Notes under the pieces: model-generated | What the model saw: the letters and a program-made list of their open reading frames with translations, nothing else | What the model was told of the DNA's origin: nothing | Databases searched by the model: none | Made by a program: the position numbers and the translations under genes | Source: a virus | Taxonomy: Duplodnaviria > Caudoviricetes | Direction: 5' to 3' (one strand) | Virus record (IMG/VR): IMGVR_UViG_3300031993_000010 | Span: 64,001-128,000 of that record | DNA: 64,000 bases | Shown: positions 399-57,043 of the stretch, piece after piece | How the letters are laid out: each line of letters starts with the position of its first letter | How positions within the stretch are numbered: the first letter of the stretch is position 1

Positions 399-592
399 CC
401 GACGAAGAACTCCTGAAGCAATTCATGGAAAACGCCATCGAAATGACGGATAGCGTTTCAGAGGAAGTTGTTGAAAGGGCGAAACAAAGTTGGGCTAAGG
501 CTTGGAAAGATGCTGTTGAATGGCATAAAAAACATCCGAACGAAGGCAATGATGCTATCGTTCAGAATGAAACAGACAGTAGGGCGACTTAA
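395..592 (+). CDS. hypothetical protein
   Basis: ATG at 395 overlaps the upstream stop (ATGA). Confidence 0.6.
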   Translation: MTDEELLKQFMENAIEMTDSVSEEVVERAKQSWAKAWKDAVEWHKKHPNEGNDAIVQNETDSRAT

Positions 593-738
593 CGGGCCGC
601 CCTTCTTATTATACGTCTGATGGTTTTTGTCGCAGGTTTCGAGCCACCGCTTTTGTTCACCGAACCATTGGATGACTTTACGACACGGTTCACTGAACCG
701 CCACCCGCAACTTTCTTTTTGCCACAACTACATCCCAT
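589..738 (-). CDS. small basic protein (MGCSCGKKK...RRAAR, 49 aa)
   Basis: Read manually, below the ORF-track cutoff; preceded by TATTTATA on the - strand. Confidence 0.65.
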   Translation of the reverse strand: MGCSCGKKKVAGGGSVNRVVKSSNGSVNKSGGSKPATKTIRRIIRRAAR

Positions 739-42411: not shown

Positions 42412-43014
42412 ATGACACTGATAATAGGCAAAATCGACAAAAGAAACAAAAAACAGATGATGTGGTCAGACGGCATCCTCAAGCAGGGCGACATGGTCTC
42501 ATCAAACAATTCCAGAAAAATAAGTTCATTCACGGATAATGACATACACCTTGTAATAGGAACGTCAGGGGTGCATACATGGAACAGGTATGTCCGTAAC
42601 CACCTTCTTCAGGAACTGAAAAAATCCAAGTACCTGTGCGGATGCCTTAACGACACCGACTACGCAGAGGAACGACTGACAGACATATTCCTGAAAATGC
42701 TTGACGACTACCGTGACCACTCAGGCAACAAGGGCGAAATCAGTTTCGGACATGTTGTGCTTCTGAACGGGCACATGTACCTTGTCGAGACTACAGGCGA
42801 CGACTACGAGGTGACTACAACAGAAGTGACAGACCGTGACTACGTGTGCAGCGGAATGGGTCAGGAGGCAGCCGAGTGCATGATGCTTCTTAAAATTCCT
42901 CCCGAAAAAATTTTTAACGCCATTTCAACAGTATATTCCTCTGTAAATGACAATGTTATGTACCTTGAGGAAAAATATGGCTCAGAAAAAAGTGAAAAAA
43001 ATACAAAAAAATAG
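42412..43014 (+). CDS. Ntn-hydrolase/proteasome-beta-like protein
   Basis: MT start, SD, KI, IGTSG, SGMG..AA. Confidence 0.5.
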   Translation: MTLIIGKIDKRNKKQMMWSDGILKQGDMVSSNNSRKISSFTDNDIHLVIGTSGVHTWNRYVRNHLLQELKKSKYLCGCLNDTDYAEERLTDIFLKMLDDYRDHSGNKGEISFGHVVLLNGHMYLVETTGDDYEVTTTEVTDRDYVCSGMGQEAAECMMLLKIPPEKIFNAISTVYSSVNDNVMYLEEKYGSEKSEKNTKK

Positions 43015-43073
43015 TATATTTGCAGTGTACTTTTGAAAATTGGGGTATATTTATAATTAAACGAAATGTTGCA

Positions 43074-43181
43074 ATGACGAATTTTAAACATAATAACAAC
43101 GGAAGTTCCTTTAACGGTTCAACACGTTATTGGGAACACGGGTATTGTGCGTCGTCAGGCTGCATTCGCAAGGCAATTTAA
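43074..43181 (+). CDS. putative attenuator leader peptide (35 aa)
   Basis: MTNFKHNNNGSSFNGSTRYWEHGYCASSGCIRKAI*; overlaps the antiterminator strand. Confidence 0.6.
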   Translation: MTNFKHNNNGSSFNGSTRYWEHGYCASSGCIRKAI

Positions 43182-43244
43182 CCCCAACATATTTTCCCCC
43201 TTTTTGACAGCCTGACGTTCCCCAAGACATCAGGCATTTTTTTT
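43153..43244 (+). terminator. terminator/antiterminator pair
   Basis: CGTCAGGCTG (43153-62) pairs CAGCCTGACG (43208-17); competing stem 43210-43235 followed by A-T8. Confidence 0.75.
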
Positions 43245-43257
43245 GGGATTTTTAAGG

Positions 43258-43305
43258 AAAAAAATTTGGCGGTTAGAAAAAAAAGTCTTACCTTTGCAAA
43301 CGTAA
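43258..43305 (+). promoter_or_regulatory. class A promoter
   Basis: AAAATTTGG ... TACCTTTG CAAACGTAA. Confidence 0.7.
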
Positions 43306-43350
43306 ACGAGAGAACTTTGACATATTAGGCAATCATACAAATAGGAAAAC

Positions 43351-43425
43351 GGGGATGTAGCGTAGGTGGTAATTGCGCGGGTGACTGAAAATCACCAGGC
43401 ACTTGTTCAACTCAAGTCGTCCCCA
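43351..43425 (+). tRNA. tRNA-Phe(GAA)
   Basis: GGTGA-CTGAAAA-TCACC; cloverleaf. Confidence 0.85.
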
Positions 43426-43430
43426 CAAAT

Positions 43431-43514
43431 GGGTAGGTATACCGTAATTGGTAGCGGGCCTGACTGTAAATCAGGTGTCTAACGACTCTGGGGGTTCAAG
43501 TCCCTCCCTGCCCA
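43431..43514 (+). tRNA. tRNA-Tyr(GTA)
   Basis: CCTGA-CTGTAAA-TCAGG; long variable arm. Confidence 0.9.
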
Positions 43515-43521
43515 CAATAAT

Positions 43522-43605
43522 GCCAGAGCGCCAAAGTTGGAGAGTTGGAACTGACTGTAAATCAGTCGCCTACGGGCTTAGTAGGTTCGAATCCTACCTC
43601 TGACA
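43522..43605 (+). tRNA. tRNA-Tyr(GTA)
   Basis: ACTGA-CTGTAAA-TCAGT. Confidence 0.88.
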
Positions 43606-43648
43606 CAACAGACATTTTTTTTTTTCACAAATTAAAAATAAAGGAACA

Positions 43649-44077
43649 ATGAAAATCTACTTTGCGGCAAGTCTTTCGGAAGACAAGAGAAAATTCATGT
43701 ACGAGGCGGTGAAGAGGCTGCGTGACATGGGGCACACGGTGTACGCCCCCATAGAGCATGTCGTTGAACATGCGTGGGAGTGGCCGAACAACGAATGGGG
43801 ACTGCAGGTCTTCCGCAACGACGTCAATGCGATAAACGATTCCGAGTTCGTGGTTGTGCTGAGTTGGGGAAGGCTCGAGACGAGTGCGGGCACCACATGG
43901 GAACAGGGATACGCCTACGGAATAGGAAAGAAGGTAATTCTTGTGGAGATGACCGACAACGTTCAGAGCCTCATGGTGGCAAACGGGAGGTTCGCAACCG
44001 TCAAGGGATTGGAAGGCCTGTACCAATACGACTTTTCCAGAATGGAACCTCTCAGGTCACAGACAGAACAGAAATAG
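43649..44077 (+). CDS. nucleoside 2-deoxyribosyltransferase family protein
   Basis: IYFAAS, DVNAINDSE, SAGTTWEQGYAYGIGKKV. Confidence 0.85.
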   Translation: MKIYFAASLSEDKRKFMYEAVKRLRDMGHTVYAPIEHVVEHAWEWPNNEWGLQVFRNDVNAINDSEFVVVLSWGRLETSAGTTWEQGYAYGIGKKVILVEMTDNVQSLMVANGRFATVKGLEGLYQYDFSRMEPLRSQTEQK

Positions 44078-44081
44078 AAAC

Positions 44082-44155
44082 GCAGGAATAGCTCAGTTGG
44101 CTTAGAGCACGACCCTTCCAAGGTCGAGATGTGGGTTTGGCTCCCATTGCCTGCT
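44082..44155 (+). tRNA. tRNA-Gly(TCC)
   Basis: CGACC-CTTCCAA-GGTCG; atypical T-loop. Confidence 0.8.
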
Positions 44156-44162
44156 CAAACAT

Positions 44163-44233
44163 AGGTCGTTGGTGTAACGGTAACATGGCTGTCTCCAAAA
44201 CAGTTGATGGAGGTTCGAGTCCTTCACGGCCTG
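44163..44233 (+). tRNA. tRNA-Trp(CCA)
   Basis: GCTGT-CTCCAAA-ACAGT. Confidence 0.9.
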
Positions 44234-44245
44234 CAAGACACACAT

Positions 44246-44318
44246 GGTGTTCGTAGTTCAATGGTGGAACGCCGCCCTGTGGAGGCGGATGGTGTCAGTT
44301 CGAGTCTGACCGAACACC
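44246..44318 (+). tRNA. tRNA-His(GTG)
   Basis: CCGCC-CTGTGGA-GGCGG; G-1:C73. Confidence 0.9.
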
Positions 44319-44340
44319 CTATTTATAAAATATAAGGTAT

Positions 44341-45087
44341 ATGAAAATGATAAATTTGGTGAAGAACAAAATAAGGAAAGCCGTCAGGGAAGTGTTGAAC
44401 GAGAATGTTGTCGGATACCCGATGCACTTCAGGACAATATACGATGACATAGGAGACGGACTCCTGATAAACGAGGGTCTGATAAAAACCTATCCATTGT
44501 CGTATGTACAGAAATACTTTGACAGACGATATGTGTTCGACATACGTGAGAAATACTTCAACGACAACGATTGGAAGGTCATCCTCGTACTGCCGTCAAA
44601 ATCCGATAAAGCGCAGGAGATTACCGATGTCTTGAACAGGTTTGGATATTATCTTGGCTACAAGGAAGAGAATGACAGGGGGCTTTGCCTTCAGTTCGAG
44701 CCTAAATTCCAGAACAAGTTCACAGGACAGCAAATGAAAGAAGTCGGGTGCAAATACCTGATACATGTTTCCCCGATGTACAATCAGGAAAAGATAATGG
44801 CAAACGGGTTGTGCCCCACAAGTAGAAACGGCGAGTTCAGTTATCCGAACAGGATATACTTATTCCTTGATACTGTGTCGGACAGGGAGTTGGAAAGCAT
44901 GGTAAGCAGACTTTCCGCCTCGAACAAGAGCAAGGGAAACGACGGCAGGTATTGCGTCTTCAACGTAAGCCTTGAAGGTCTTGAGGAACACACGTTTAAC
45001 CTTGACTTCAACATGGACAACGCTGTCTTCACCGAGGAAAACATCCCCCCGACAAACCTGCAATTGGTGAAAATCCTCAATGTTTAA
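44341..45087 (+). CDS. ART/KptA(Tpt1)-like domain protein, paralog of 56043..56828
   Basis: HVSP...I...GL.P...YPNRIYL...FTEENIPP.NL. Confidence 0.55.
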   Translation: MKMINLVKNKIRKAVREVLNENVVGYPMHFRTIYDDIGDGLLINEGLIKTYPLSYVQKYFDRRYVFDIREKYFNDNDWKVILVLPSKSDKAQEITDVLNRFGYYLGYKEENDRGLCLQFEPKFQNKFTGQQMKEVGCKYLIHVSPMYNQEKIMANGLCPTSRNGEFSYPNRIYLFLDTVSDRELESMVSRLSASNKSKGNDGRYCVFNVSLEGLEEHTFNLDFNMDNAVFTEENIPPTNLQLVKILNV

Positions 45088-45099
45088 CACTTTTTAACA

Positions 45100-45147
45100 A
45101 AAAAGATTTGGCCAATTCAAAAAATGGTAGTATCTTTGCAAACGTAA
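45100..45147 (+). promoter_or_regulatory. class A promoter
   Basis: AAAAAGATTTGG ... TATCTTTG CAAACGTAA. Confidence 0.7.
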
Positions 45148-45269
45148 ACAAAACAGAGATAGAAAAAAATTCCGAGAAAGTTGAAATTTGCAAGAAAAAA
45201 TAGTATATTTGCATTGTCTGATTGGTTCATGATAGATGACATCCCGCCATTCAGATAACAGTGGCGGAA

Positions 45270-45343
45270 GCCGGGTAGCTCAAGGGTAGAGCGTTGCCCC
45301 GCATTGCGAGGAAGAGAGTGCAGGTTCGAATCCTGTCCCGGTG
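45270..45343 (+). ncRNA. tRNA-like RNA with irregular anticodon arm
   Basis: Intact D arm (TAGCTCAAGGGTAGAGC) and T arm; no 5-bp/7-nt anticodon arm. Confidence 0.6.
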
Positions 45344-45691
45344 CCGAGACACGTAATGTGTACAGTACTTTGACATATTGGTTAGAGGTTAAAAACGGAC
45401 AGATGAGCCGCCAACGGACGGTTCGGAAGTCCACAAGACAAGAAAGTTCGTTCCTTGACAATAGGCATAAGAGGGCTTATCCTCGCACTGCGAGGATTGT
45501 AAGTACCCGAGGTTCCCGCTTTTATTTTTGCGCGATAACAGGCGATTGTTGGGGAATTGACATAGGACTGATGTGGGAGAGATACCCTATTCAGCCCCCA
45601 AAATGGGACATCAGGGCGTTTGGCGGTGACGATGCACCCTTAACATAAAGGGTAGCGGCAGGCACGACTTTTTTGCAGGTGTTCCGAATAT

Positions 45692-45778
45692 GGGAGACAT
45701 ACAGCAAACCATCTTTGAATTTCATAAAACAGTTTTTAAGTGGTTTACAAACAGTCCAAAATGCCCGTCCGTCTCCTG
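45692..45778 (+). ncRNA. ACAGCAA-motif RNA, free copy 1
   Basis: GGGAGAC-ATACAGCAA...GTCTCCTG. Confidence 0.65.
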
Positions 45779-45847
45779 ACACCATAGCGGTTTTCACGAG
45801 TTTCCCGCTTTGCCCTAAAAACTCTTTATATCGATAATCGGTTATAT

Positions 45848-45913
45848 GGAAGCCGTACAGCAAACTTTTCAAGCAACAAACTTTTAATTTGTACACGCTA
45901 ACCTTGGCTTCTG
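45848..45913 (+). ncRNA. ACAGCAA-motif RNA, free copy 2
   Basis: GGAAGCC-GTACAGCAA...GGCTTCTG. Confidence 0.7.
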
Positions 45914-46118
45914 TCGATTATACTAAACTTAATCTAAGCCTGAAAGGTGGGCGTTATCTATAATACCTTCCACAAGGCGTAAGCCAGGTGTGGATATGGG
46001 AAGGGTAACAAATATCTCTAATGGGGTTTGGTAAGCTTTATCTTGGTGAAGAAATTAAGTGCCAAGGGGTCCCAGATACAAGTGACTACGGAAATCTTGT
46101 AAGGTTTAGATTTATTTT

Positions 46119-46190
46119 GCTTCCTTAGTATAGTGGTTATTACTCCGGATTTGTAACCCGGAAACACTCGTTCAAATCGAGTAGGAAGCT
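46119..46190 (+). tRNA. tRNA-Thr(TGT)
   Basis: CCGGA-TTTGTAA-CCCGG. Confidence 0.8.
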
Positions 46191-46287
46191 CACCTGAAAA
46201 CATTTTGTTTAAATTTTTAGTGTACTTCATTGGAGTTGTTCGTGTTCCCCCCTACTCCGCGTGTAAATAAAAAGAAGGGAACAATCT

Positions 46288-46416
46288 CGGAGGATAGTTT
46301 AACGGCAAAACGGAGGCTTGCATCAAAATGGTTTTCTGCATACGGAATACCAACAGCAACAGCAACCAATACGCAACAGGGTGCCTCAGTTACAGGTTCG
46401 AATCCTGTTCTTCCGA
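46288..46416 (+). ncRNA. tRNA scaffold carrying a permuted ACAGCAA motif in the anticodon arm
   Basis: Acceptor CGGAGGA/TCTTCCG, D and T arms; insert GGTTTTCTG-catac-GGAATACC-AACAGCAA. Confidence 0.7.
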
Positions 46417-46554
46417 CAAAGGCCGAAGCCCACACGCACATGCTTAATGAGTCTCAACGTGCGTTCCGAAAGGAATAGGACCATAGAGTTGGAAAGACCT
46501 GTGCACGGGTGTGAAAACGTTTCCAATAGACGGGGAAGTGGGGTCGGTTGCTTT

Positions 46555-46627
46555 GGGAACATAGCTCAGCAGGTAGAGCGGCACCCTGTTAAGGTGATGG
46601 TCGTAGGTTCGAACCCTACTGTTCCCG
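46555..46627 (+). tRNA. tRNA-Asn(GTT)
   Basis: CACC-CTGTTAA-GGTG. Confidence 0.88.
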
Positions 46628-46662
46628 CATGATTTTTTGTCATAGTTCATAGTTTTTTTAAA

Positions 46663-46718
46663 GGAAGACGTACAGCAAACACAAAAGTTTTTATGGAAAA
46701 GACGAAAATTGTCTTCTG
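46663..46718 (+). ncRNA. ACAGCAA-motif RNA, free copy 3
   Basis: GGAAGAC-GTACAGCAA...GTCTTCTG. Confidence 0.7.
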
Positions 46719-46724
46719 AAAAAT

Positions 46725-46795
46725 GGCCCTTTAGTTTAGCGGTAGAACGAATGGTTTTCAGCCATTAGAGCGGGGTTCGACTCCCCGATGGGCTA
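46725..46795 (+). tRNA. tRNA-Glu(TTC)
   Basis: AATGG-TTTTCAG-CCATT. Confidence 0.85.
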
Positions 46796-46877
46796 CAATG
46801 TACTAAAAGGACATCGGATTTTGACTTGTTTTCAAAGTTCGAAAGTATTTATAATAGCAGTTAAATTGTTGATAGTT

Positions 46878-47804
46878 ATGATTTCAGATGAATTGTTACA
46901 AGAACATCTCATTGTTGAGTTTTTGTTTGCGGATAGTTTGAACCATGATTTTTTCATTACTGAGAATTATGGTAAAATACATGGAATATACGATATTATA
47001 AAAACTATAGGGGATAAATTCCTTAAAGGGGAACGGAGTGTGACTGTAGGCATACCCGATGTGGGTGAAGTTGAGATTGTTTTTCAATATTCCGAAGGTT
47101 GGACGAACAGGAATGTCGTTGCATACTGTGACTACAATGGTGCCAAGCCACGTATTATAGTTAATGTTGAAAGTGTAGACAGGAATGCGGCGGTGGAGGA
47201 AGTTAAAAGAATAATTGCCCACGAAATCATACATGCAAGGCATGAAAAGGGTGTTGAGGAAAGGTATGGCGAAGAAACGTCCATAGACAATTTTGAGAAG
47301 GGGTATAGGGCTGCAGTGCTTTTTTCAAAAGACAGTGACCCTTTGGTCAGTAGTTTTGGGTACACTCTCTACTATCTGTCAAAATCGGAACAAAACGCTT
47401 TTATAGGACAGACGTGCGTTGAAATTGAAAACATGGGTAACGAAATCAAAGACCACAAATCTGCGATGGAGTGTATCAAGAAAACCGACGCATATGCAAG
47501 AATAGTTACCTTGGGGAAAAGGATAGAGTTGCTGAAGTCAGCAAATGAGGAGGATATGCAGAATTTGGTCGATGGATATATACATTTAACAGGAATCAAG
47601 ACAACTCCAAGTAAATTACTTAAATATGTGGAGAATGAATACCGTAAGTTTGTGGACAAATTTTACAGACAGGTTTCGAAAATGGCTTATGAACAGTATG
47701 AAAAGCATACCGCACAGCGTTTCGAACCCAAACTGAAGGATGGCCTGTACGAAGACCTGTGCAAAACAAGGGATTTTATGGAACGTCTTGATAATGTCAG
47801 GTAA
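46878..47804 (+). CDS. hypothetical protein with HExxH motif
   Basis: AHEIIH...EQNAF; TATTTATA upstream. Confidence 0.65.
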   Translation: MISDELLQEHLIVEFLFADSLNHDFFITENYGKIHGIYDIIKTIGDKFLKGERSVTVGIPDVGEVEIVFQYSEGWTNRNVVAYCDYNGAKPRIIVNVESVDRNAAVEEVKRIIAHEIIHARHEKGVEERYGEETSIDNFEKGYRAAVLFSKDSDPLVSSFGYTLYYLSKSEQNAFIGQTCVEIENMGNEIKDHKSAMECIKKTDAYARIVTLGKRIELLKSANEEDMQNLVDGYIHLTGIKTTPSKLLKYVENEYRKFVDKFYRQVSKMAYEQYEKHTAQRFEPKLKDGLYEDLCKTRDFMERLDNVR

Positions 47805-47845
47805 CGGTTGTTTTCAAAGTTCGAAAGTAGTTATATTTAGATATA

Positions 47846-48250
47846 ATGAAAACCGATATGACAAAGACAAGTTTAATTTTAATGTTATGGGAACTTCCCC
47901 AACTCCTCCTTGGACGTATGATTGCCAAAAAGACAGGTGCCCATGCACACACTGTCGACGGTGTGCGTGTATATGTGACCAACAAGTATGACGGAATGTC
48001 GATGGGTGACACGTTGTTTGTCAACCCCAACTCGTTCTACGGGACTTGGATGGTCAAGCATGAGTTCGGTCATATAATCCAAAGCAGGATATTGGGTTGG
48101 CTCTACATCCCATTGATACTCATACCGAGCATTGTATGGAAAAAGGCTACCGAGGCAATTGACAGGGTCTTCCCCTCAGAGGAGGCTGACATCAATTTCT
48201 TCAGTCAGCAGTTCTATACCGAACAATGGGCAAATTGGTTGATACTTTAA
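47846..48250 (+). CDS. membrane protein with HExxH motif
   Basis: KHEFGH..QS..LGWLY...FYTEQWAN. Confidence 0.65.
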   Translation: MKTDMTKTSLILMLWELPQLLLGRMIAKKTGAHAHTVDGVRVYVTNKYDGMSMGDTLFVNPNSFYGTWMVKHEFGHIIQSRILGWLYIPLILIPSIVWKKATEAIDRVFPSEEADINFFSQQFYTEQWANWLIL

Positions 48251-48489
48251 GACGGATAGATACCCAAACTCCAACAGCCTAATGGAGGTGATAACCACCT
48301 TGTCGGCTGTTATAGGGGCTAAAGACAGTCAAGGCGAACATCCTGCGAGAAAACAGGAACATGGTTTAAATAGTACCTTACTGTCAATGCGTTCCAAAGG
48401 GTTGTGGTGTTGGATATGTACGGCTACGGCATGGGGTGAGATTGTAGCAAGCACCCTGCAACACTGCATATATCCGTTTTTTATTATAT

Positions 48490-48577
48490 GGAGAGGTGGC
48501 CGAGTGGCTGAAGGCACAGGTTTGCTAAACCTGCAAACCCGATAAGGGTTTCGGGGGTTCGAATCCCTCCCTCTCCG
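48490..48577 (+). tRNA. tRNA-Ser(GCT)
   Basis: CAGGT-TTGCTAA-ACCTG; long variable arm. Confidence 0.92.
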
Positions 48578-48587
48578 CGCAAGTTTT

Positions 48588-48660
48588 GGGAATGTAGCTC
48601 AGTTATGGTAGAGCACCGCGTAACGGCGGGACCGCATGGGTTCGAACCCCATCATTTCTA
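48588..48660 (+). ncRNA. tRNA-like RNA with shortened anticodon arm
   Basis: CCGC-GTAACG-GCGG; normal D and T arms. Confidence 0.6.
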
Positions 48661-48879
48661 CTCTATCTAAATCCCTGTCTCGAAAGAGACCAATAGTAAA
48701 CAAAGATTTTCCTGACAAAAGTGGGGCAGAGTAGTCGGGACGGCAGATGCAGCCGTGATGAAATAATGGTGGTAAGCGAGACGTGCATCAATCCACCAAT
48801 TTTTAAAGATAGGTTGTAAAATCCGCAAGGGTACACCGTAAACTGTGTTGACCTGTCTTTTTTGACATAGTGCATAGAC

Positions 48880-49014
48880 GTGGACTGTGACGGGGAATGG
48901 GTAAACCCGCGCCGTAAAATAGAGGAACGACTGGAAGTGGTCGGTAAAAGTCGGACGGTGGACCGAAAGGTTTTGACACGTCAGTCACTGTGGGTTCGAG
49001 TCCCATCGGTGCGC
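48880..49014 (+). ncRNA. tRNA-like RNA with expanded anticodon/variable region
   Basis: Leu/Ser-type D arm, T arm GTGGG-TTCGAGT-CCCAT. Confidence 0.5.
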
Positions 49015-49102
49015 GGATATGCACTTTTTTTACGGAAAAATTGTAACTTTTGAAAAATACGTTATATTTATAAAAGAATAAGGTAACAGAAGAAATAAGA
49101 AA

Positions 49103-49240
49103 ATGGTAACGGCTTTAATCATATTATCTGTATTGGCAATCCTTGCACAGTGCTGCATTGTGCTCAGGATGCCCGTCGCATGTGCAGACGCCGACAGACA
49201 AGACGACCCCAAAGCCGTGGAGGAAATAGGCAAGGAATAG
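49103..49240 (+). CDS. small membrane protein (45 aa)
   Basis: MVTALIILSVLAILAQCC...; TATTTATA upstream. Confidence 0.5.
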   Translation: MVTALIILSVLAILAQCCIVLRMPVACADADRQDDPKAVEEIGKE

Positions 49241-49319
49241 ACACATTTTTCACTCTCATTAATATGCGTGGTTCCTTGTCAGACACAGGGAACCACAATT
49301 TTTTTAAGGGAAATTAAGA

Positions 49320-49367
49320 AAAAAGATTTGGTCGGAAGGAAAAAAGTTGTTACCTTTGCAAACGTAA
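49320..49367 (+). promoter_or_regulatory. class A promoter
   Basis: AAAAAGATTTGG ... TACCTTTG CAAACGTAA. Confidence 0.7.
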
Positions 49368-49376
49368 AAGATACAG

Positions 49377-49453
49377 TGCGGGATGGAGAAGTTGGTCATC
49401 TCACGTGGCTCATAACCACGAAATCGGGGGTTCGAATCCCTCTCCCGCTACCA
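49377..49453 (+). tRNA. tRNA-fMet(CAT), initiator-like
   Basis: CGTGG-CTCATAA-CCACG; 1:72 mismatch; encoded CCA. Confidence 0.85.
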
Positions 49454-49555
49454 AAAAATTCCGAAAGAAGCCCTGCCAGGCTTTCGAGTAGGTCGCACGG
49501 AAACTGATTAGACGACGGCGTGGCAGCGCCTTCGGATTGAAAGGCTGACGTGTAA

Positions 49556-49628
49556 GACGAGGTGGTGTAATCGGTAAGCACACTTGCTATGGTTGCAAGA
49601 AGCGTATGGTTCAAATCCTACTCTCGTG
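49556..49628 (+). ncRNA. degenerate tRNA-like RNA (TGG in loop but A33)
   Basis: CTTGC-TATGGTT-GCAAG; bulged T stem. Confidence 0.5.
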
Positions 49629-49680
49629 TCGTAACGCAAAATGCGTAAAAGTACTTTGACATGTTGGTTAGAGGTTAGAT

Positions 49681-49762
49681 GCTCAGGTGGCGAAATTGGT
49701 AGACGCGCAACGTTGAGGTCGTTGTGGGGAAACCCGTGGGGGTTCAAGTCCCCCCTTGAGCA
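49681..49762 (+). tRNA. tRNA-Leu(GAG)
   Basis: CAACG-TTGAGGT-CGTTG. Confidence 0.9.
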
Positions 49763-49772
49763 CAAGTTTTTT

Positions 49773-49845
49773 CTCCCTGTAGTTCAGTGGATAGTAACGA
49801 GAGATTCCTAATCTCTAAACCGAGGTTCGAGTCCTCGTGGGGAGA
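49773..49845 (+). tRNA. tRNA-Arg(CCT)
   Basis: AGAGA-TTCCTAA-TCTCT. Confidence 0.88.
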
Positions 49846-49854
49846 CAAAAAGCA

Positions 49855-49980
49855 GACCATGTGGCGCTGAAATACACCTGACAGGAAAGCGCCTGAAAGC
49901 AGAAATGCGAAGTCGAGTCCAAAGATGGTGTTCACGGACGAGGTAATGGCGAGGTGTCGGTTCAAGTCCGACCATGGTCT
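49855..49980 (+). ncRNA. tRNA-like RNA with multiple insertions
   Basis: Acceptor GACCATG/CATGGTC, T arm GTCGG-TTCAAGT-CCGAC. Confidence 0.55.
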
Positions 49981-49982
49981 CA

Positions 49983-50306
49983 AATTCCAATTGTTGATAT
50001 ACGTTTGAACGTATGTAAGACGAGCGTTCGAATCGCTCCATCTCCACAAAATTACAAAGTGCCCAGGGCACGAAAGCATTGCAGATAATGATGCTAATCC
50101 TGAACCCAAATCGAAAAGGGGTCGTGTTGCAAGTCATACTTTGTAGGATAAGGATAACATTGGGGATGTCTTGGTTTCGATTGCATGTCAAGTAGGATGT
50201 AAGGAGATTGGGATTAGTTGTTTTAAACGGCAACACAAACTATCGTTATGCAATGGCTGCCTGATAGGGCACCCATGTGCGAGTTGGCCACGAACTAAAT
50301 CGTGGC
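49983..50306 (+). ncRNA. ssrA: circularly permuted (two-piece) tmRNA
   Basis: T arm + CATCTCC-A (50022-46) precede GGGGATG..TTCGA (50162); G3:U70; tag GNTNYRYAMAA* at 50229-64; outer ends approximate. Confidence 0.85.
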
Positions 50307-50313
50307 AAATTTT

Positions 50314-50400
50314 GGACGCGTGGTGTAATTGGTTCAGCATACGGCACTGTCACTGCCGAGGGAGCGTAAGCCATTGCGGGTTCGAGTCCCGTCGTGTCCG
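50314..50400 (+). tRNA. tRNA-Asp(GTC) with long variable arm
   Basis: CGGCA-CTGTCAC-TGCCG. Confidence 0.85.
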
Positions 50401-50496
50401 CTAAAATATAAGTAACGGTTCAACTTTTTATTAGTTTGCTTGTAAACACTTGTTTTACTTTTTATTCCACAATATATGATATAAAAAGAAGCGACT

Positions 50497-51594
50497 ATGG
50501 AGTATAACGAAGACAATTTTAGAAATGCAAAACCATTTGATTTATTTGAATTCACATGTGAAAATTGTGGATGTACTTTTACGCAAAACAAAAGATACAT
50601 TGTAAAATGTGGGGGTAAAATACCACGTTATTGTTCAAGTAAATGCCGAGGGGAAGCAAAGAAGACGTTAATTAAAGTGCATTGTGCGGAATGTGGAAAA
50701 GAAAAGTTTGTTCGGAAACACGAATACGAAACAAGTAAGACAGGTAATTTCTTTTGTTCTGAATTACATGCTGCGATGTTTAATAATAAAGGACGTAAGC
50801 ATAAAAATGAAACGAAAAGATTATTAAGTGAAAAAGAATTTAATATTTTAAATAAAAATGTTGAATACATAGAAAATGATACAGTTTGTCCAATATGTGG
50901 TAATAGAAAAACTTCTATGTCCGGTGTTTGTAAAAAGTGTTCAGACAGGGCAAATTATGAAGAATATGAAAACAAAACATTGGGTGAAGTGCTTGGTGAA
51001 AACACTACGTATACAACTAAGTTGTGTTCCACAATAAGAAAACACGCAAGAAGAAAGATGGAGGAAGGGTCAGTTGAAAAGGTATGTGCTTATTGCGAGA
51101 ACCATGAATATGATGAAATATTAGAAGTACACCACATAAAAGGTATACTAACATTTAACCGTGAAACAAAAATAAAGGAAATAAATGACTACAAGAACCT
51201 TTTATGGTTATGCCCAAATCACCATCAAATGTTGGAAAAAGGGTTAATAAGTATAGAAGATATTGACTTGGAAAAGCATCAAAGTGTAGAAGAATCGGAT
51301 GGGTTCTCCCACAAAGAAGTTAAGGACATTATCAAGTCTAATATAGAAAAAAGAATATCTGCAGGTTATTCATACAAAACCCCAAAAAAGGAACAATTGA
51401 CAAAAGAAGAGGTTGCATTTAATCAGCGTAGATGTGAATGGCCTTCAAAAGAAGAATTGTTGGGTTTAATAAAAACAATTTCATTTGAAGCAATTGGAAG
51501 GCGGTATGGGGTTACGGGAAACACGGTGAAGAAATGGTGTAAACGTTATGGATTGCCAAGTAGAAAATGTGATATAAAAGAGATAACAGAATAA
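50497..51594 (+). CDS. HNH endonuclease with zinc fingers
   Basis: CAYC...LEVHHI...NDYKNLLWLCPNHH; C-terminal HTH; AT-rich. Confidence 0.82.
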   Translation: MEYNEDNFRNAKPFDLFEFTCENCGCTFTQNKRYIVKCGGKIPRYCSSKCRGEAKKTLIKVHCAECGKEKFVRKHEYETSKTGNFFCSELHAAMFNNKGRKHKNETKRLLSEKEFNILNKNVEYIENDTVCPICGNRKTSMSGVCKKCSDRANYEEYENKTLGEVLGENTTYTTKLCSTIRKHARRKMEEGSVEKVCAYCENHEYDEILEVHHIKGILTFNRETKIKEINDYKNLLWLCPNHHQMLEKGLISIEDIDLEKHQSVEESDGFSHKEVKDIIKSNIEKRISAGYSYKTPKKEQLTKEEVAFNQRRCEWPSKEELLGLIKTISFEAIGRRYGVTGNTVKKWCKRYGLPSRKCDIKEITE

Positions 51595-51609
51595 TGAATA
51601 AAACCACTT

Positions 51610-51693
51610 GCTTTGGTGGGGGAATTGGTAGACCCGTCAGATTTAAGCTCTGGTGCCCGAAAGGGCGTGTGGGTTCGAGTCCCACCCGAAGCA
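51610..51693 (+). tRNA. tRNA-Leu(TAA)
   Basis: TCAGA-TTTAAGC-TCTGG. Confidence 0.9.
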
Positions 51694-51787
51694 CGGATAT
51701 TCAACAAAATGCCCGTAGAGTTTCTTGGCGTTTCTTCTTGTCATTCGGGCTGCCCGTTGCAAGGGCTGAAAACATGAAACCCAATAT

Positions 51788-51869
51788 CCCATCGTGGCGT
51801 AATTGGCAGCCGCGCCCGTCTCAAAAGCGGGTTCCGAAAGGAGTATAGGTTCAAGTCCTATCGGTGGGA
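51788..51869 (+). tRNA. tRNA-Leu(CAA)
   Basis: CCCGT-CTCAAAA-GCGGG. Confidence 0.88.
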
Positions 51870-52056
51870 CTATAAGTAAAATGGAAGTTGCATTTCGGGA
51901 ATGCGGAGACCTCCGACCGCAATACAAATGAGGAGGTGGAACAAAGCCCGCATGCAAGACAGCTGTACTTCCGTATGTACTTATAACCTTATCCAAGGCG
52001 GCATTTTTTCCACTTCAAGTGTTTCATAGCATTTTTTATCACCTTGCCGCCTTCAA

Positions 52057-52141
52057 GTCTCCGTAGCTCAGTTGGTTTGCGAAAGCTTAGAGCATCGCCC
52101 TTTTAAGGCGGGAGTCCTGGGTTCGAGTCCCAGCGGGGACA
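52057..52141 (+). tRNA. tRNA-Lys(TTT) with enlarged D-loop
   Basis: TCGCC-CTTTTAA-GGCGG; D-loop insert GCGAAAGC. Confidence 0.85.
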
Positions 52142-52183
52142 CAACTTTTCAAATCCGTATCTATTTATAGTAAAACAAACATT

Positions 52184-52855
52184 ATGGATATGGAAATTTG
52201 GGAAACAACCGACATGAAGTCTGTTCGTCCCGACTTGAAGTTCAAGATAATGCGTACAGATTTCGCCAAACTTTTCAAGAACATGGGCTACTCGTTCTTT
52301 GAGAACGGGCTGTACAACCTGAACATCATAGGCATACGGTCTGACAACAAGAACAAGGTGACCAACAAGTACGACGACGTGCTTGTGCTGATATACAACA
52401 ACGGCAACGGAAAGCAGAAGATAATGTACCCCATCACGACCGAGCCTGGTCTCTATTATATGACAACTGAACTCGGCAATGCGAAGGGAACTGCGATACT
52501 CGTTCCCGGGCAGTACAAGGGCTGTTGGGCGATTGGAAAGCATAACGGAAAGTACAAGGCGTTGGTTCAGGTGAAGCCCGTCAAGGTCTACAGGGACAAG
52601 AACAAGGACAAGGTCTACGACATGAACCCCAAGACTGTCGACAATGGCGTATTCGGCATAAACATACACCGAAGCAACGAGAATTGGACACGTGACACTG
52701 TCGACATGTACAGTGCAGGATGTCAGGTGTTCGCAAACCCGAACTATTTCAAGTCTTTCATCTCAATCTGTGAGAAGCAGGCGGGGCTGTACGGAAACTC
52801 GTTCACCTACACCCTCATCAACGAGAAGGACTTGGATTTCGGTCAGACAGTTTAA
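52184..52855 (+). CDS. putative peptidoglycan-active enzyme (L,D-transpeptidase-like)
   Basis: GINIHR...SAGCQV His/Cys motif; TTEPG, YRDKNKD. Confidence 0.55.
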   Translation: MDMEIWETTDMKSVRPDLKFKIMRTDFAKLFKNMGYSFFENGLYNLNIIGIRSDNKNKVTNKYDDVLVLIYNNGNGKQKIMYPITTEPGLYYMTTELGNAKGTAILVPGQYKGCWAIGKHNGKYKALVQVKPVKVYRDKNKDKVYDMNPKTVDNGVFGINIHRSNENWTRDTVDMYSAGCQVFANPNYFKSFISICEKQAGLYGNSFTYTLINEKDLDFGQTV

Positions 52856-53013
52856 AGAGACAGTTTTTCTGAAAGAGTGATTATACCATTGCCCCGACAC
52901 GCTTGTCGTGGAGGACAGGGACGCCTGTCCATAAACGTCGGCGAACCAGGTCGGATGTTCGCGGCATGAAGCGGCTCCTCAGCGTGGAAGCAAGAGCGTT
53001 TTCTGAGGTAATC

Positions 53014-53175
53014 CGAGTAGTAGCCCAGTTGGTCTAAGGCACTGCATTTGGTTAGGGAGATGCTACCTCCTATTGAGAATAAAGCGATTTCGCAAATGGT
53101 TGGGTACAACCCTGGGGTTCGATTCCCTTGTGCGAAACGATGCAGAAATCGTGTGTTCGAATCACACCTACTCGA
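53014..53175 (+). tRNA. tRNA-Pro(TGG) interrupted by an 87-nt insert
   Basis: Removing 53052-53138 gives CTGCA-TTTGGGA-TGCAG; C1:G72, A73. Confidence 0.75.
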
Positions 53176-53336
53176 CTGATTATCAGATAGTTTCAAATAA
53201 AAACCCTTTCGTAAAGGAAGGTGCCGCCTGGTTGGCCAATCAGGTCTGTGGTTGGAGGTAAAGCATGTTAACGGCTCATGACCGTTTCTGTTCCACTATG
53301 AGTGACGTGATGCGCAGCGTAAAAAGCCTCCTAAAT

Positions 53337-53407
53337 CTCCCTATAGTTCAATGGAAGAACATAAGTCTACGGAACTTACGATTGGGGTTCGAGTCCCTAT
53401 GGGGAGA
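53337..53407 (+). tRNA. tRNA-Arg(ACG)
   Basis: TAAGT-CTACGGA-ACTTA. Confidence 0.88.
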
Positions 53408-53622
53408 CGATAAGGTGCATAAAAAGGTTAGAGATTGGATGTTGGAGTGAAACTACTTACTCCCTCGTCAGCCATCCATTAGAACATGACCGACCAAACG
53501 GGGAAACTCGACCTGAACAGCACAGTGCTGCAATTTAGCCTTCAATGGTAGTTGAAGGGATGGGTTGAATTTGGAATATAGTACCCAGGGCACGGCAAGA
53601 ACAGTTCAATATGCATCTTTAA

Positions 53623-53696
53623 GGTCCTTTAGCTCAATTGGTCAGAGCAACTGACTCATAATCAGTAGGTTGGGAGTTCAAATCTCTCAAGGACCA
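53623..53696 (+). tRNA. tRNA-CAT (Ile2 or elongator Met)
   Basis: ACTGA-CTCATAA-TCAGT. Confidence 0.85.
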
Positions 53697-53748
53697 CAAG
53701 CAGTATAAGGTTCTCCACGGGTCTGCTTTAACAAAACCGTGGCAGTCA

Positions 53749-53823
53749 GCTCCTGTAGCTCAGTTGGTTCAGAGCATCGCCCTTACAAGGCGGGGGTCAC
53801 AAGTTCGAGTCTTGTCGGGAGCA
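53749..53823 (+). tRNA. tRNA-Val(TAC)
   Basis: TCGCC-CTTACAA-GGCGG. Confidence 0.9.
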
Positions 53824-53930
53824 CAATGGAGCAAAGCGCAAATGTCGTGGTGACAGGGACTTGCTGCAAGTTTTGCGACATTCACTACAGAGTACACCGT
53901 CACCAAGCCCCGGAGCTCTATGGGGCAGAT

Positions 53931-54058
53931 GCTAATGTAACTCAGAATGGTTTAGAGTGCTGGGGGAGGGAAAGAGCCTGATACCCAATCCCGGATGTGG
54001 AGTAAAGGACAAGGTTAAGTACGACTCCTTTTCGGTGGTTCAAATCCACCCGTTAGCA
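53931..54058 (+). ncRNA. tRNA-like RNA with expanded anticodon and variable arms
   Basis: Acceptor GCTAATG/CGTTAGC; D and T arms intact. Confidence 0.6.
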
Positions 54059-54174
54059 CGTGAAAAGCCGTAGGGATTGATTTAGGAGGTAATTTCCAAC
54101 CTTGTTCGGCAACCAACCTTGAGCAGCGCGCGTTAACAAGCTTGCAAGGAGGACAAAAGGAAAAAACCAAATTT

Positions 54175-54249
54175 CGGTTCGTAGCTCAGTTGGCTCAGAG
54201 CACTACACTGATAATGTAGGGGTCGGTGGTTCGAATCCACCCGAACCGA
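54175..54249 (+). tRNA. tRNA-Ile(GAT)
   Basis: CTACA-CTGATAA-TGTAG. Confidence 0.92.
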
Positions 54250-54707
54250 CAAAGCAACTTGCAAATACGTATCGTGCAAGTTCGCCTACACTTGGGGTCA
54301 GACCCACCCTGCTTGGGATAGGGTCAGGTATTTTCAGCCTGATAATTCTACTTAACGCCTGAGCGAACGTCTGTTACAGGAATGTCCACTTCATTGGTGC
54401 GATGGAGAGTAGATTAAGTCGCATTGGTGTTGGAACACGGATACATTGCCGAATTTTTGGTGGGTTTTCGGTTCTGTATTCGTGATGAAGGGCAGATAAG
54501 ATAAGTACAGACCCACTAAACGTTGCAGTAAGCGGCGGCGACCAAGAACATGAGATTGGGCTGACATACGGTTCGGTCCCATGGACAAAAAACTCCAAGC
54601 AGTTAGTCTGCCGCAGGTTGCCATTACGGTTTAGGGTTTTATACTGAGCAACCTTTCCGTCGTTTCTGTGATGTTTCCCTGAATCTCCTTTTCAAATTAT
54701 TATATAG

Positions 54708-54780
54708 GGGCCGCTGCCTCCAATGGTACAGGAACGGCTTTGCAAGCCGTCATTTCTCAGTTCGAATCTGAGGCGGTCCA
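54708..54780 (+). tRNA. tRNA-Ala(TGC)
   Basis: ACGGC-TTTGCAA-GCCGT; G3:U70; atypical D arm. Confidence 0.8.
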
Positions 54781-54789
54781 CAAAAACAC

Positions 54790-54845
54790 GGAAGTCGTAC
54801 AGCAAAACAACAAGAGTATAGTGGAATTACTTCAATTGACTTCTG
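54790..54845 (+). ncRNA. ACAGCAA-motif RNA, free copy 4
   Basis: GGAAGTC-GTACAGCAA...GACTTCTG. Confidence 0.7.
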
Positions 54846-54850
54846 TATAA

Positions 54851-54924
54851 TGTCCTGTAGTTCAGTTGATTAGAACGTTGGATTTTGGTTCCAAAGGTCG
54901 CCGGTTTGAACCCGGCCAGGACTA
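54851..54924 (+). tRNA. tRNA-Gln(TTG)
   Basis: TTGGA-TTTTGGT-TCCAA. Confidence 0.85.
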
Positions 54925-54929
54925 CACAA

Positions 54930-55050
54930 CGGGAAATAGTTTAATGGTAGAACGGGGGTAGCGAAAAAGATGGTTTTCTGTAGATGGAATACCAACAGCA
55001 ACCAAATGCGTCCCAAACCCTAAGTGGAGGTTCGAGTCCTCCTTTCCTGT
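54930..55050 (+). ncRNA. tRNA scaffold carrying a permuted ACAGCAA motif
   Basis: Acceptor CGGGAAA/TTTCCTG; insert GGTTTTCTG-tagat-GGAATACC-AACAGCAA. Confidence 0.7.
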
Positions 55051-55058
55051 CTAAATAT

Positions 55059-55181
55059 GGTCGGAGTCGTCTAGTGGATAGGACACGTAAAACAAAAGAC
55101 TTCTGCTATGGAAATCGTACAGCAACCAATTTGAAATGCTTTCTGGTAGCCGTAACACAGGTTCGAATCCTGTCTCCGACC
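55059..55181 (+). ncRNA. tRNA scaffold carrying a permuted ACAGCAA motif
   Basis: Acceptor (G)GTCGGAG/CTCCGAC(C); insert GACTTCTG-ctat-GGAAATC-GTACAGCAA. Confidence 0.7.
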
Positions 55182-55416
55182 CACAATGGAAGTACGAACC
55201 ACTGAGTATAAGCGGGGCAATTCGCAATGCCGTACTAGTAAAAGGCACGGTGGAGTAGTCGGGAGTAGAGTATTCCCTCAGCCCGCTGAAAGGTGTTGGT
55301 GACCGTGAGGTGCCATAAGGTGCAACGCAACACAGGGTAAAACCGCAAGCGGTAATGCAATCGACGTAAAGCCGTCGTTTCCTGAGTCCGTGGCTCGTCA
55401 ACTTACTTCCTTTTTT

Positions 55417-55488
55417 CTTTCTATAGTTTAATGGATAAAACGAAGGTCTTCTAAACCTTAAATCCCAGTTCGATTCTGGGTGGAAAGA
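55417..55488 (+). tRNA. tRNA-Arg(TCT)
   Basis: AAGGT-CTTCTAA-ACCTT. Confidence 0.88.
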
Positions 55489-55499
55489 CATTAAACAAC

Positions 55500-55922
55500 A
55501 TGATTATGAGTAACAAAGTTAGAAATGATTGTATTTGCATAAATTGTGGTAAAGTTTTTTATCCACAGAAAAATACAACAGGTAAATATTGCAGCAACAA
55601 ATGTCAACAGGAATATCAATCTCATCAAAAATATCTCAATTATTTGGCCGACCCTTCAAAGTATATGAAGGGATGTAATATGAAATGGATAAAGAAACAC
55701 ATACTGCAAGAACAGGGATATAAATGCGCTATATGTAATATGCCTAATAGTTGGAATGGTAAGGTATTGATATTCATATTAGACCATATTGATGGACATG
55801 CCCATAATAACAATAGGTCAAACCTTAGGCTTATATGTCCTAATTGCGATTCTCAATTAGACACTTATAAAAGCAAAAACAAGAAAAGCGATAGGATTTA
55901 TTACCACTTTCATCATAGATAA
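55500..55922 (+). CDS. HNH endonuclease
   Basis: CAIC...LDHIDG...NN..SNLRLICPNC. Confidence 0.88.
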   Translation: MIMSNKVRNDCICINCGKVFYPQKNTTGKYCSNKCQQEYQSHQKYLNYLADPSKYMKGCNMKWIKKHILQEQGYKCAICNMPNSWNGKVLIFILDHIDGHAHNNNRSNLRLICPNCDSQLDTYKSKNKKSDRIYYHFHHR

Positions 55923-55928
55923 TGAGAT

Positions 55929-56003
55929 GACAGGGTACCAGAGAGGATTAATGGCCAAGTCTGCAAAACTTCGGATTCGTGGGTTCGAATCCCACCCCTG
56001 TCT
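55929..56003 (+). tRNA. tRNA-Cys(GCA)
   Basis: AAGT-CTGCAAA-ACTT; U73. Confidence 0.85.
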
Positions 56004-56042
56004 CAAACAACTATTAGTATATTTATATAAAAAAACATAGCA

Positions 56043-56828
56043 ATGGAAGAAAAAAATATATTGAAGGAACACATTAGGAACATAGTCAAGCAAACGATTC
56101 GTACCTTGTGCGGTACTGAGCCTGTTTTTCCATCACAACCCTTAAAGCGCTATCCGTCAAAATTGGAGATTGCGATGAAGAAAGACCTGAACGAAGGTCT
56201 GATAAGGACATATCCGATGGAATGGGTTGAGAAATACCTTTCCACAAGGTTCAACTCGGATTTTGTCAAGGGTGGTGTGGATGACGAGGTTATGCATTTT
56301 TGGTTCATACTGAAGAAGGGCAGCAAGTCAATTGAACCGCTGAAGCAGAAGATGGATTCATTCGGTTATTTCTGTTCGGCTGAGGACAACGTTACCGAAG
56401 GCGTGTATCTGCAGTTCGAGCCGAAGTATGATGAATACAAGACAGGTGAGGAATTTTCAAGTAGAGATAATGACGAGATATTCTTCTATCACGTTACACC
56501 ATTGTTTTTAGCAAATAAAATAAAAGTCAGCGGTTTGGTACCGAAATCCAAAAATGAGTTTCTCAATTATCCCGACCGTGTTTACCTTACCTTGGCTGAT
56601 GACGGAAAAGAGACTGCATATGAAATGGCTGACATGCTGTATACAAATTCAGGCAACAAAATGAACGATGGCAAATACTGTTTAATAGGTGTTACATTGA
56701 ACGGTTTGGAAAAGGCTAAGTTCTACCCCGACTGGAATGTGTCACACGCCACTGCCTATTTCACTTACGACAACATACCGCCACAGAACCTGAAGTTTCT
56801 GGAAACCTTCGAGGCTCAGAAGGCATAG
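56043..56828 (+). CDS. ART/KptA(Tpt1)-like domain protein, paralog of 44341..45087
   Basis: YHVTP...I...GLVP...YPDRVYL...FTYDNIPPQNL. Confidence 0.55.
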   Translation: MEEKNILKEHIRNIVKQTIRTLCGTEPVFPSQPLKRYPSKLEIAMKKDLNEGLIRTYPMEWVEKYLSTRFNSDFVKGGVDDEVMHFWFILKKGSKSIEPLKQKMDSFGYFCSAEDNVTEGVYLQFEPKYDEYKTGEEFSSRDNDEIFFYHVTPLFLANKIKVSGLVPKSKNEFLNYPDRVYLTLADDGKETAYEMADMLYTNSGNKMNDGKYCLIGVTLNGLEKAKFYPDWNVSHATAYFTYDNIPPQNLKFLETFEAQKA

Positions 56829-56830
56829 AC

Positions 56831-56903
56831 GGCTCCGTAGCCCAACGGAAGAGGCGGAACACTTAGGATGTTCACAGTATAGGTTCGAATCCTATCGGGG
56901 CTA
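56831..56903 (+). tRNA. tRNA-Leu(TAG), short variable loop
   Basis: GAACA-CTTAGGA-TGTTC. Confidence 0.8.
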
Positions 56904-57043
56904 CTTGACTTTAGGAAACCGTGTACATGTTGACAGAAAATTGAAAAAACGTGTAAAGCCATCCTGTATACATGTGGATAACACGTTTTTTAAATGTAAA
57001 ATATCTTGTATAATATTGAATCTTAATGCTATATAAAAATTAT

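Follow-up and report, generated by a model that had tools for sequence, protein, structure and literature searches.

Two putative codon-matched leader-peptide attenuators, one for each block of a phage tRNA island

Why phages carry transfer RNA (tRNA) genes is a long-open question, with codon compensation and the replacement of tRNAs lost to defence or depletion as competing answers. The case studied here is a tRNA island in the virus record IMGVR_UViG_3300031993_000010 (Caudoviricetes). We analysed bases 64001-128000 of this 227-kb record, a stretch of 64,000 nucleotides (nt) called the window here. All 28 tRNA calls and the permuted transfer-messenger RNA (tmRNA) of the window lie at 43351-56904, and an earlier note, made from the letters alone, had read the region just upstream (43074-43244) as a ribosome-mediated transcription attenuator. 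What, then, could decide when these tRNAs are made? We found that the island consists of two tRNA blocks, each headed by its own leader cassette. The earlier reading is supported by the conservation of the cassette, the exclusive RNA pairings and the match between leader codons and tRNA blocks. We propose, with a probability of about 0.8, that the cassettes are two multivalent leader-peptide transcription attenuators, codon-matched, one per tRNA block.

Two leader cassettes and a divided code

The features that carry this proposal are listed below, with A, B and C denoting the phage lineages described in the next section (ORF, open reading frame; bp, base pairs).

43048-43055, plus strand: TATTTATA promoter-like motif of cassette 1
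43069-43079, plus strand: segment 1, a possible pairing partner of segment 2 while the RNA is untranslated; lineage A, not kept in B
43074-43181, plus strand: leader ORF 1, 35 codons, TAA stop; putative sensing part codons 2-24, tail over the antiterminator strand codons 25-35
43153-43162, plus strand: segment 2, the antiterminator 5' strand, within codons 27-30
43182-43206, plus strand: pyrimidine-rich spacer, C/T-rich and G-free, 3' of the leader 1 stop; kept in all three lineages
43208-43217, plus strand: segment 3, the antiterminator 3' strand and terminator 5' arm
43210-43244, plus strand: intrinsic terminator 1, 6-bp stem and 3 inner pairs, then A-T8
43351-48661, plus strand: tRNA block 1 (Phe, Tyr, Tyr, Gly, Trp, His, Thr, Asn, Glu, Ser(GCT)), with remodelled tRNA-like genes also inside
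49065-49072, plus strand: TATTTATA promoter-like motif of cassette 2, upstream context as in cassette 1
49103-49240, plus strand: leader ORF 2, 45 codons
49229-49238, plus strand: cassette 2 antiterminator 5' strand, last codons and first stop base; 10 bp with 49271-49280
49268-49305, plus strand: intrinsic terminator 2, 12-bp stem, -19.3 kcal/mol, T7
49377-56904, plus strand: tRNA block 2 (Met x2, Leu x4, Arg x3, Asp, Lys, interrupted Pro, Val, Ile, Ala, Gln, Cys) and the permuted tmRNA

The architecture of cassette 1 agrees with the earlier description. The 35-codon ORF is present at 43074-43181, with Asn at codons 3, 7, 8, 9 and 14, and the bases 43153-43162 over codons 27-30 are the exact reverse complement of 43208-43217. 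The terminator stem at 43210-43235 is followed by A and T8 and has a predicted fold of -11.9 kcal/mol; it is absent from a simple terminator scan because of its long loop. Antiterminator and terminator are mutually exclusive, as had been claimed, because 43210-43217 is common to both pairings. The antiterminator duplex of 9-10 bp was calculated at about -19 to -21 kcal/mol, loop cost excluded, against -8.5 to -10.4 kcal/mol for the terminator core. A 10-bp perfect complement to the terminator arm appeared in 0.03% of leader shuffles (p=3e-4). Among 101 terminator-like hairpins of the 227-kb genome piece, terminator 1 alone possesses a perfect upstream complement of at least 8 bp; the remaining ones reach less than 6 bp in 81 cases, 6 bp in 16 and 7 bp in three.

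A second cassette, which the earlier note had not seen, is located at 49065-49305 ahead of tRNA block 2. A genome-wide screen for a promoter, a short ORF and a terminator in combination returned five candidates, two of which lie in the tRNA island and are cassettes 1 and 2. The spacer of cassette 2 is likewise T/C-rich, though looser. The spacer at 43182-43206 is a possible pause site or a site for Rho or another factor. In cassette 2, as in cassette 1, antiterminator and terminator are mutually exclusive.

The two cassettes divide the genetic code. Counting clearly called tRNA genes, block 1, between the cassettes, supplies nine amino acids (F, Y, G, W, H, T, N, E and S) and block 2, past cassette 2, the other eleven, with zero overlap. 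Each leader includes every amino acid of its own block. The link from leader 1 to its downstream tRNAs, which the earlier note had drawn for a few of them, is therefore stronger than claimed, with all nine block-1 amino acids in the leader. Block-1 residues make up 24 of 34 in the whole of leader 1, and block-2 residues 38 of 44 in the whole of leader 2 (24:10 versus 6:38; Fisher p=3.6e-7). Random partitions of the amino acids into nine and eleven match as well in 1 of 10,000 trials (p=1e-4), and none of 50,248 proteome windows equals the 38/44 of leader 2. These whole-ORF figures are the fair test. In sub-ranges picked post hoc, the match rises to 21/23 in codons 2-24 of leader 1 (binomial 6e-6; 2 of 54,532 proteome windows) and to 36/38 in codons 2-39 of leader 2 (binomial 4e-8); the ends of these ranges coincide with independently modelled blocking points of the ribosome. 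When the tRNA order is divided in two, the best fit comes at, or just past, cassette 2. At the codon level, TTA, TTG, CTT/CTC, AGG and AGA of leader 2 each have a matching isoacceptor in block 2. No correspondence was found between codon order in the leaders and tRNA gene order.

One detail of the earlier note was modified. Cys, which it listed among the leader residues, is encoded at codons 25 and 30, in the tail and outside the sensing part. The leader of the window is indeed rich in Asn, with five residues, but a sensor specific for Asn was ruled out: the Asn run is not conserved across relatives, and the sensor would therefore be multivalent.

Conservation in relatives and a ribosome-position model

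The relatives compared are loci from goat, cattle and other gut sequencing runs, and a 365-kb contig carries the same proteins as the window. Of the sequencing runs listed as containing the sequence, the best match is a bovine gut metagenome, possibly the source, and none is an RNA run. The host is most likely a member of the rumen Bacteroidota, because the promoters match the Bacteroidota TAnnTTTG box. Lineage A comprises the window and the close strains L239-L242, lineage B L371 and L372, and the distant lineage C L364, L373 and L374. The complementarity was checked in these relatives, as the earlier note had suggested, and in all three lineages the ORF, antiterminator and terminator were found to head the tRNA island. 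The layout of promoter, ORF, antiterminator, terminator and tRNAs is retained with neighbouring proteins down to about 40-50% identity.

Within lineage A, codons 1-11, the antiterminator and the stem of the terminator are retained in L239-L242, and the terminator differs in the loop only. In L239-L241, about 40 nt of the leader middle were swapped for unrelated sequence that is 3 nt shorter and keeps the frame open, and 9 of the 11 residues in the new middle belong to block 1. Lineage B was reached by a profile search with leader peptides, which returned one further family (P0029, E=1e-4). Both its members have the same promoters, an identical 10-bp antiterminator, the terminator, the second promoter, a boxA-like element and tRNAs, and the leader scores 19/24 against the block-1 set of the window. 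The lineage B leader has a Leu codon, and tRNA-Leu(TAG) lies early in its block, a hint that tRNA genes moving between blocks may bring their codons along. Lineage C was reached through the neighbouring proteins of about 40-50% identity, and there too the cassette heads its island. Its antiterminator retains a 7-bp core, has lost three inner pairs and has gained two outer Watson-Crick pairs; these pairs were counted by script because MAFFT misaligned lineage C at the antiterminator. The leader stop of lineage C is a new one at a similar distance downstream. Cassette 2 is also retained in L377 and L378, where a change from G-U to A-U keeps an antiterminator pair while nearby tail and spacer bases drift.

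Across the three lineages the leader ORF has 34-38 codons. The distance from start to antiterminator falls into four length classes (76, 79, 82 and 91/94 nt), all stop-free in one frame, and both other frames contain stops over this stretch. Between lineages A and B the leader 1 peptide shows 14 non-synonymous versus three synonymous codon changes. Because the frame is kept, replacements far exceed synonymous changes and the antiterminator core is invariant, what is conserved appears to be translation itself together with the RNA pairing, not the protein product. Lineage C has one leader with 17-19 amino-acid types, and a second cassette was not found in its island; this fits a single pan-sensor, though weakly by itself.

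The position of the ribosome was modelled by folding a transcript ended where the terminator 5' arm has just emerged, with an assumed ribosome footprint of 30 nt. In leader 1, the antiterminator forms fully with the ribosome on codons 1-23 and is abolished with the ribosome on codons 24-34. In leader 2 the switch point is codon 40. These switch points, codon 24 and codon 40, are where the codon match stops. Without a ribosome, segment 2 is sequestered in the RNA of lineage A and of lineage C but not in that of lineage B.

The following sequence of events is proposed. Transcription would begin at the TATTTATA-class promoter, with a ribosome trailing on the leader. At normal decoding speed the ribosome would cover the antiterminator strand (from codons 24-34 of leader 1, or codon 40 onward of leader 2) as the terminator 5' arm emerges, so that the terminator forms and transcription ends. 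If decoding of any amino acid of the block were slow, owing to cleavage, lack of charging or exhaustion of its tRNA, the ribosome would lag, the antiterminator would form first and the polymerase would continue into the block supplying those same tRNAs. The switch would give conditional extra expression, probably late in infection, above an ungated baseline from host-type promoters. This scheme assumes that the host couples transcription to translation, and translation of the leaders, promoter timing and the reach of read-through are inferred. A race of this kind, between ribosome and polymerase, is the model described for classical leader-peptide attenuators (PMC1183508).

Evidence against attenuation and other explanations

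Several observations weigh against this proposal. In lineages A and B, 17 nt separate the end of the antiterminator strand from the stop codon, and in the footprint model a ribosome at the stop clears the strand, which predicts leaky basal read-through or requires tight timing; at the same position the antiterminator is blocked in lineage C (L373) and in cassette 2. The lineage C model permits antitermination at some stall positions only, and the amino-acid diversity of its leader reaches weak significance (p 0.02-0.3). In the sensing part of leader 1, Lys5 and Arg18 fall outside block 1. Since the 7-bp antiterminator core is invariant, classical covariation is scant, and the protector helix of segments 1 and 2 is not kept in lineage B. 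A strong independent promoter lies about 45 nt past each terminator, and more promoters and terminator-like hairpins are found within the tRNA blocks. In L367 and L368, an IS605-type element (TnpB, 439 aa; L367:3950-5430) has inserted at a TAGA site between leader and terminator. A new terminator-like hairpin comes with the left end of the element, and six loop bases, among them part of the antiterminator 3' strand, are missing from the stranded terminator; the switch is therefore dispensable there and can be lost.

The alternative that survives best keeps a real switch and makes it general, reporting any slowing of translation, whether by antibiotic, toxin or ribosome shortage, with the codon match as a by-product. 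It is favoured by the lack of a single-codon run in the leader, by the modelled antitermination after a stall anywhere in codons 1-23, and by the one leader of 17-19 amino acids that serves the entire island in lineage C. The near-perfect complementary 9/11 split between two leaders would be left unexplained, as would the match retained after the middle of leader 1 was replaced, and we regard this explanation as unlikely.

Still less probable, in our judgement, is that the cassettes make stand-alone small transcripts or proteins ending at constitutive terminators, leader 2 being a small membrane protein and leader 1 a peptide or small RNA, with the tRNAs expressed from the downstream promoters only. 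Each cassette is a complete unit of promoter, ORF and terminator followed by a promoter of its own, and leader 2 is sufficiently hydrophobic over codons 2-20 (mean hydropathy 2.7) to form a membrane helix. However, codons 22-39, the hydrophilic half, are 18/18 block-2 residues (p=2e-5), so that a membrane helix fails to explain the match. The 14:3 ratio of codon changes speaks against a peptide product, and the internal fold of leader 1 is not retained; Rfam families gave no match, and the conserved antiterminators would have no role. A 6S-like or other fixed RNA fold was ruled out, as the leader middle was replaced without retention of the fold.

Very improbable, finally, is antitermination by a bound protein or tRNA (T-box-like, or a factor on the pyrimidine tract) with an incidental ORF: the tract 43182-43206 is kept in all lineages and boxA-like elements lie downstream, but no T-box or other Rfam leader was detected, T-boxes were not found in seven Bacteroidetes/Chlorobi genomes (PMC2494555), and frame retention and codon match need translation.

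If codon-matched attenuation is accepted, the nature of the trigger can be considered. Host tRNA-cutting defences such as anticodon nucleases are plausible, because phage tRNAs rescue such defences in an expression-dependent manner (PMC11555353). The same switch would also respond to starvation or to simple tRNA depletion in the course of infection. In the fullest form of the proposal, to which we give even odds, the leaders constitute a phage tRNA-supply feedback: each would poll the decoding speed of its own block, detect destroyed host tRNAs and resupply the matching set. If true, this would be a defence-sensing counter-defence circuit made of RNA alone. That each tRNA block would answer to how fast its own amino acids are decoded implies that the tRNAs are kept for conditional shortage. 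The hypothesis is directly testable with short reporters, and in Bacteroidota the leaders could be put to use in vivo to report on tRNA-targeting defence.

Related systems, promoters and neighbouring genes

The attenuators of amino-acid operons, such as trpL, hisL and pheL of E. coli and the multivalent thrL and ilvGMEDA leaders, are the nearest known relatives in mechanism. As proposed for the phage cassettes, a short leader ORF is rich in codons cognate to the controlled product, and ribosome position decides between exclusive antiterminator and terminator. The phage cassettes differ from the trpL/hisL/thrL type in that tRNA genes in a phage would be the target, 9 or 11 amino acids would be sensed by way of isolated codons and not of codon runs, the code is shared out between two leaders, the antiterminator strand is located within the ORF and not past its stop, and a second promoter follows the terminator. 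The modelled basal read-through of leader 1 is comparable to the release-dependent leak of trp. The cassettes would thus work like multivalent leader-peptide attenuators, and they are no standard members of the family because their target is tRNA genes with a promoter in between. Ribosome-mediated attenuation, with one to three amino acids sensed and enzyme genes as targets so far, would be extended to 9-11 amino acids and to tRNA genes.

The pheST attenuator, with its pheM leader, controls phenylalanyl-tRNA synthetase and likewise feeds decoding speed back onto a component of the translation machinery, but for one amino acid and a protein-coding target in a cellular gene. T-box riboswitches (RF00230) also let tRNA status set the choice between terminator and antiterminator, but by direct tRNA binding with no leader ORF. 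The Bacteroid-trp leader (RF01692), from the same phylum as the probable host, is presumably a leader-peptide attenuator, which would make the mechanism possible in Bacteroidota hosts; unlike the phage cassettes it is Trp-specific and has biosynthetic target genes. It is listed as a Bacteroidetes cis-regulatory motif (PMC2864571). Phage tRNA-rich regions counter tRNA-cutting defences, as in T5 against retron-Eco7 (PMC11555353) and in the case of PARIS (PMC11464382), and an anticodon-loop hypothesis on phage tRNAs has been put forward (PMC10264068). Like this island, such arrays are able to resupply depleted tRNAs; there the tRNAs are expressed from a strong promoter, and the passages and abstracts consulted contain no mention of an on-demand, codon-matched switch. 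Literature searches, of partial coverage, found no published attenuation control of phage tRNA genes.

Database searches returned little. Rfam had no match to the element, with sub-threshold chance matches only, and none in the relatives either. The covariance models of Bacteroid-trp, 6S-Flavo and ribosomal-protein leaders did not match, and neither a T-box sequence nor a Stem I with specifier loop was found, at gathering score or at E<=10. BLASTN and tblastn against the annotated phage collection, and cassette pattern scans of viral, metagenome and genome contigs, gave chance matches only. The viral scan missed L373, a true match, so that blank pattern scans are weak and a host-encoded version may still exist. 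The best-looking pattern match, L283, was rejected, since it lies between two pilin-like genes on a GC-rich contig. ESM Atlas had no usable match. Leaders of similar appearance may precede TROVE genes of Bacteroidota hosts; a TROVE match is present in neither phage record.

The regulatory elements flanking the cassettes are as follows.

43007-43023, plus strand: AGTATATTTG-class promoter-like motif, in agreement with TAnnTTTG, the -7 box of Bacteroidota; found in lineages A and B and absent from C
43289-43303, plus strand: independent host-type (early-class) promoter core before tRNA block 1
43312-43326, plus strand: boxA-like element, kept at the same place in lineages A and B
49351-49365, plus strand: independent host-type promoter core before tRNA block 2

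The separate promoter that the earlier note placed between terminator and first tRNA is present at 43289-43303 and belongs to the commonest promoter class of the genome. With a host-type promoter after each terminator, the switch would add to tRNA output and would not be a full gate; the caveat once made for cassette 1 holds for both. In the genome piece, 15 motifs of the AGTATATTTG class precede genes. The TATTTATA class is common to all leaders seen, in cassette 1 of every lineage and in cassette 2. From their distribution, TATTTATA is probably the late promoter class of the phage and the downstream class the early one; PHROG scans, which returned a sigma factor, a partial endolysin match and others mostly without known function, did not establish TATTTATA as late. 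The sigma factor (L375:10513-11214; PHROG 351, E=5e-43) lies behind a TATTTATA motif and is a candidate reader of this class. A 49-codon, very basic, Cys/Lys/Arg-rich ORF in the region of window positions 483-632, minus strand (genome about 64600-64750), is protamine-like, sits between a TATTTATA motif and a terminator, and possibly encodes a DNA-condensing virion protein. Other boxA-like elements are located at 45364-45391 and 49650-49677. The element is regarded as conserved because it is also found in distant lineages (L364:5607, L367:6458), and it could extend read-through across the blocks.

Directly upstream of cassette 1, a 200-aa gene (42412-43014) has no Pfam, PHROG or homolog match beyond its own cluster; we take its N-terminal Thr and Gly-Ser-Gly-like motifs to resemble Ntn-hydrolases. 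A three-codon mini-ORF at 43066-43077, with its stop overlapping the leader 1 start (ATGA), is retained in all lineage A strains despite base changes, and is not present in B or C.

The tRNA genes themselves vary among strains. The first tRNA-Phe (43351-43426; L239:3437-3510; L242) occurs in two unrelated sequence versions in strains otherwise 90-95% identical, and in L240 the second tRNA-Tyr is missing and a further tRNA-Gly(GCC) is present. The tRNA-like gene that lies 3' of tRNA-Ser(GCT), at 48588-48661, has a shrunken anticodon arm, and the close relative L377 (995-1084) has an intact tRNA-Ser(TGA) at this site, a reader of the TCA/TCG codons found in leader 1. Another tRNA-like gene, at 46288-46417, contains a 58-nt insert in the anticodon arm. 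It was called Arg-GCG by ARAGORN, its first loop bases are GCA, and, should the gene be functional, it might explain the Arg or Cys codons in leader 1.
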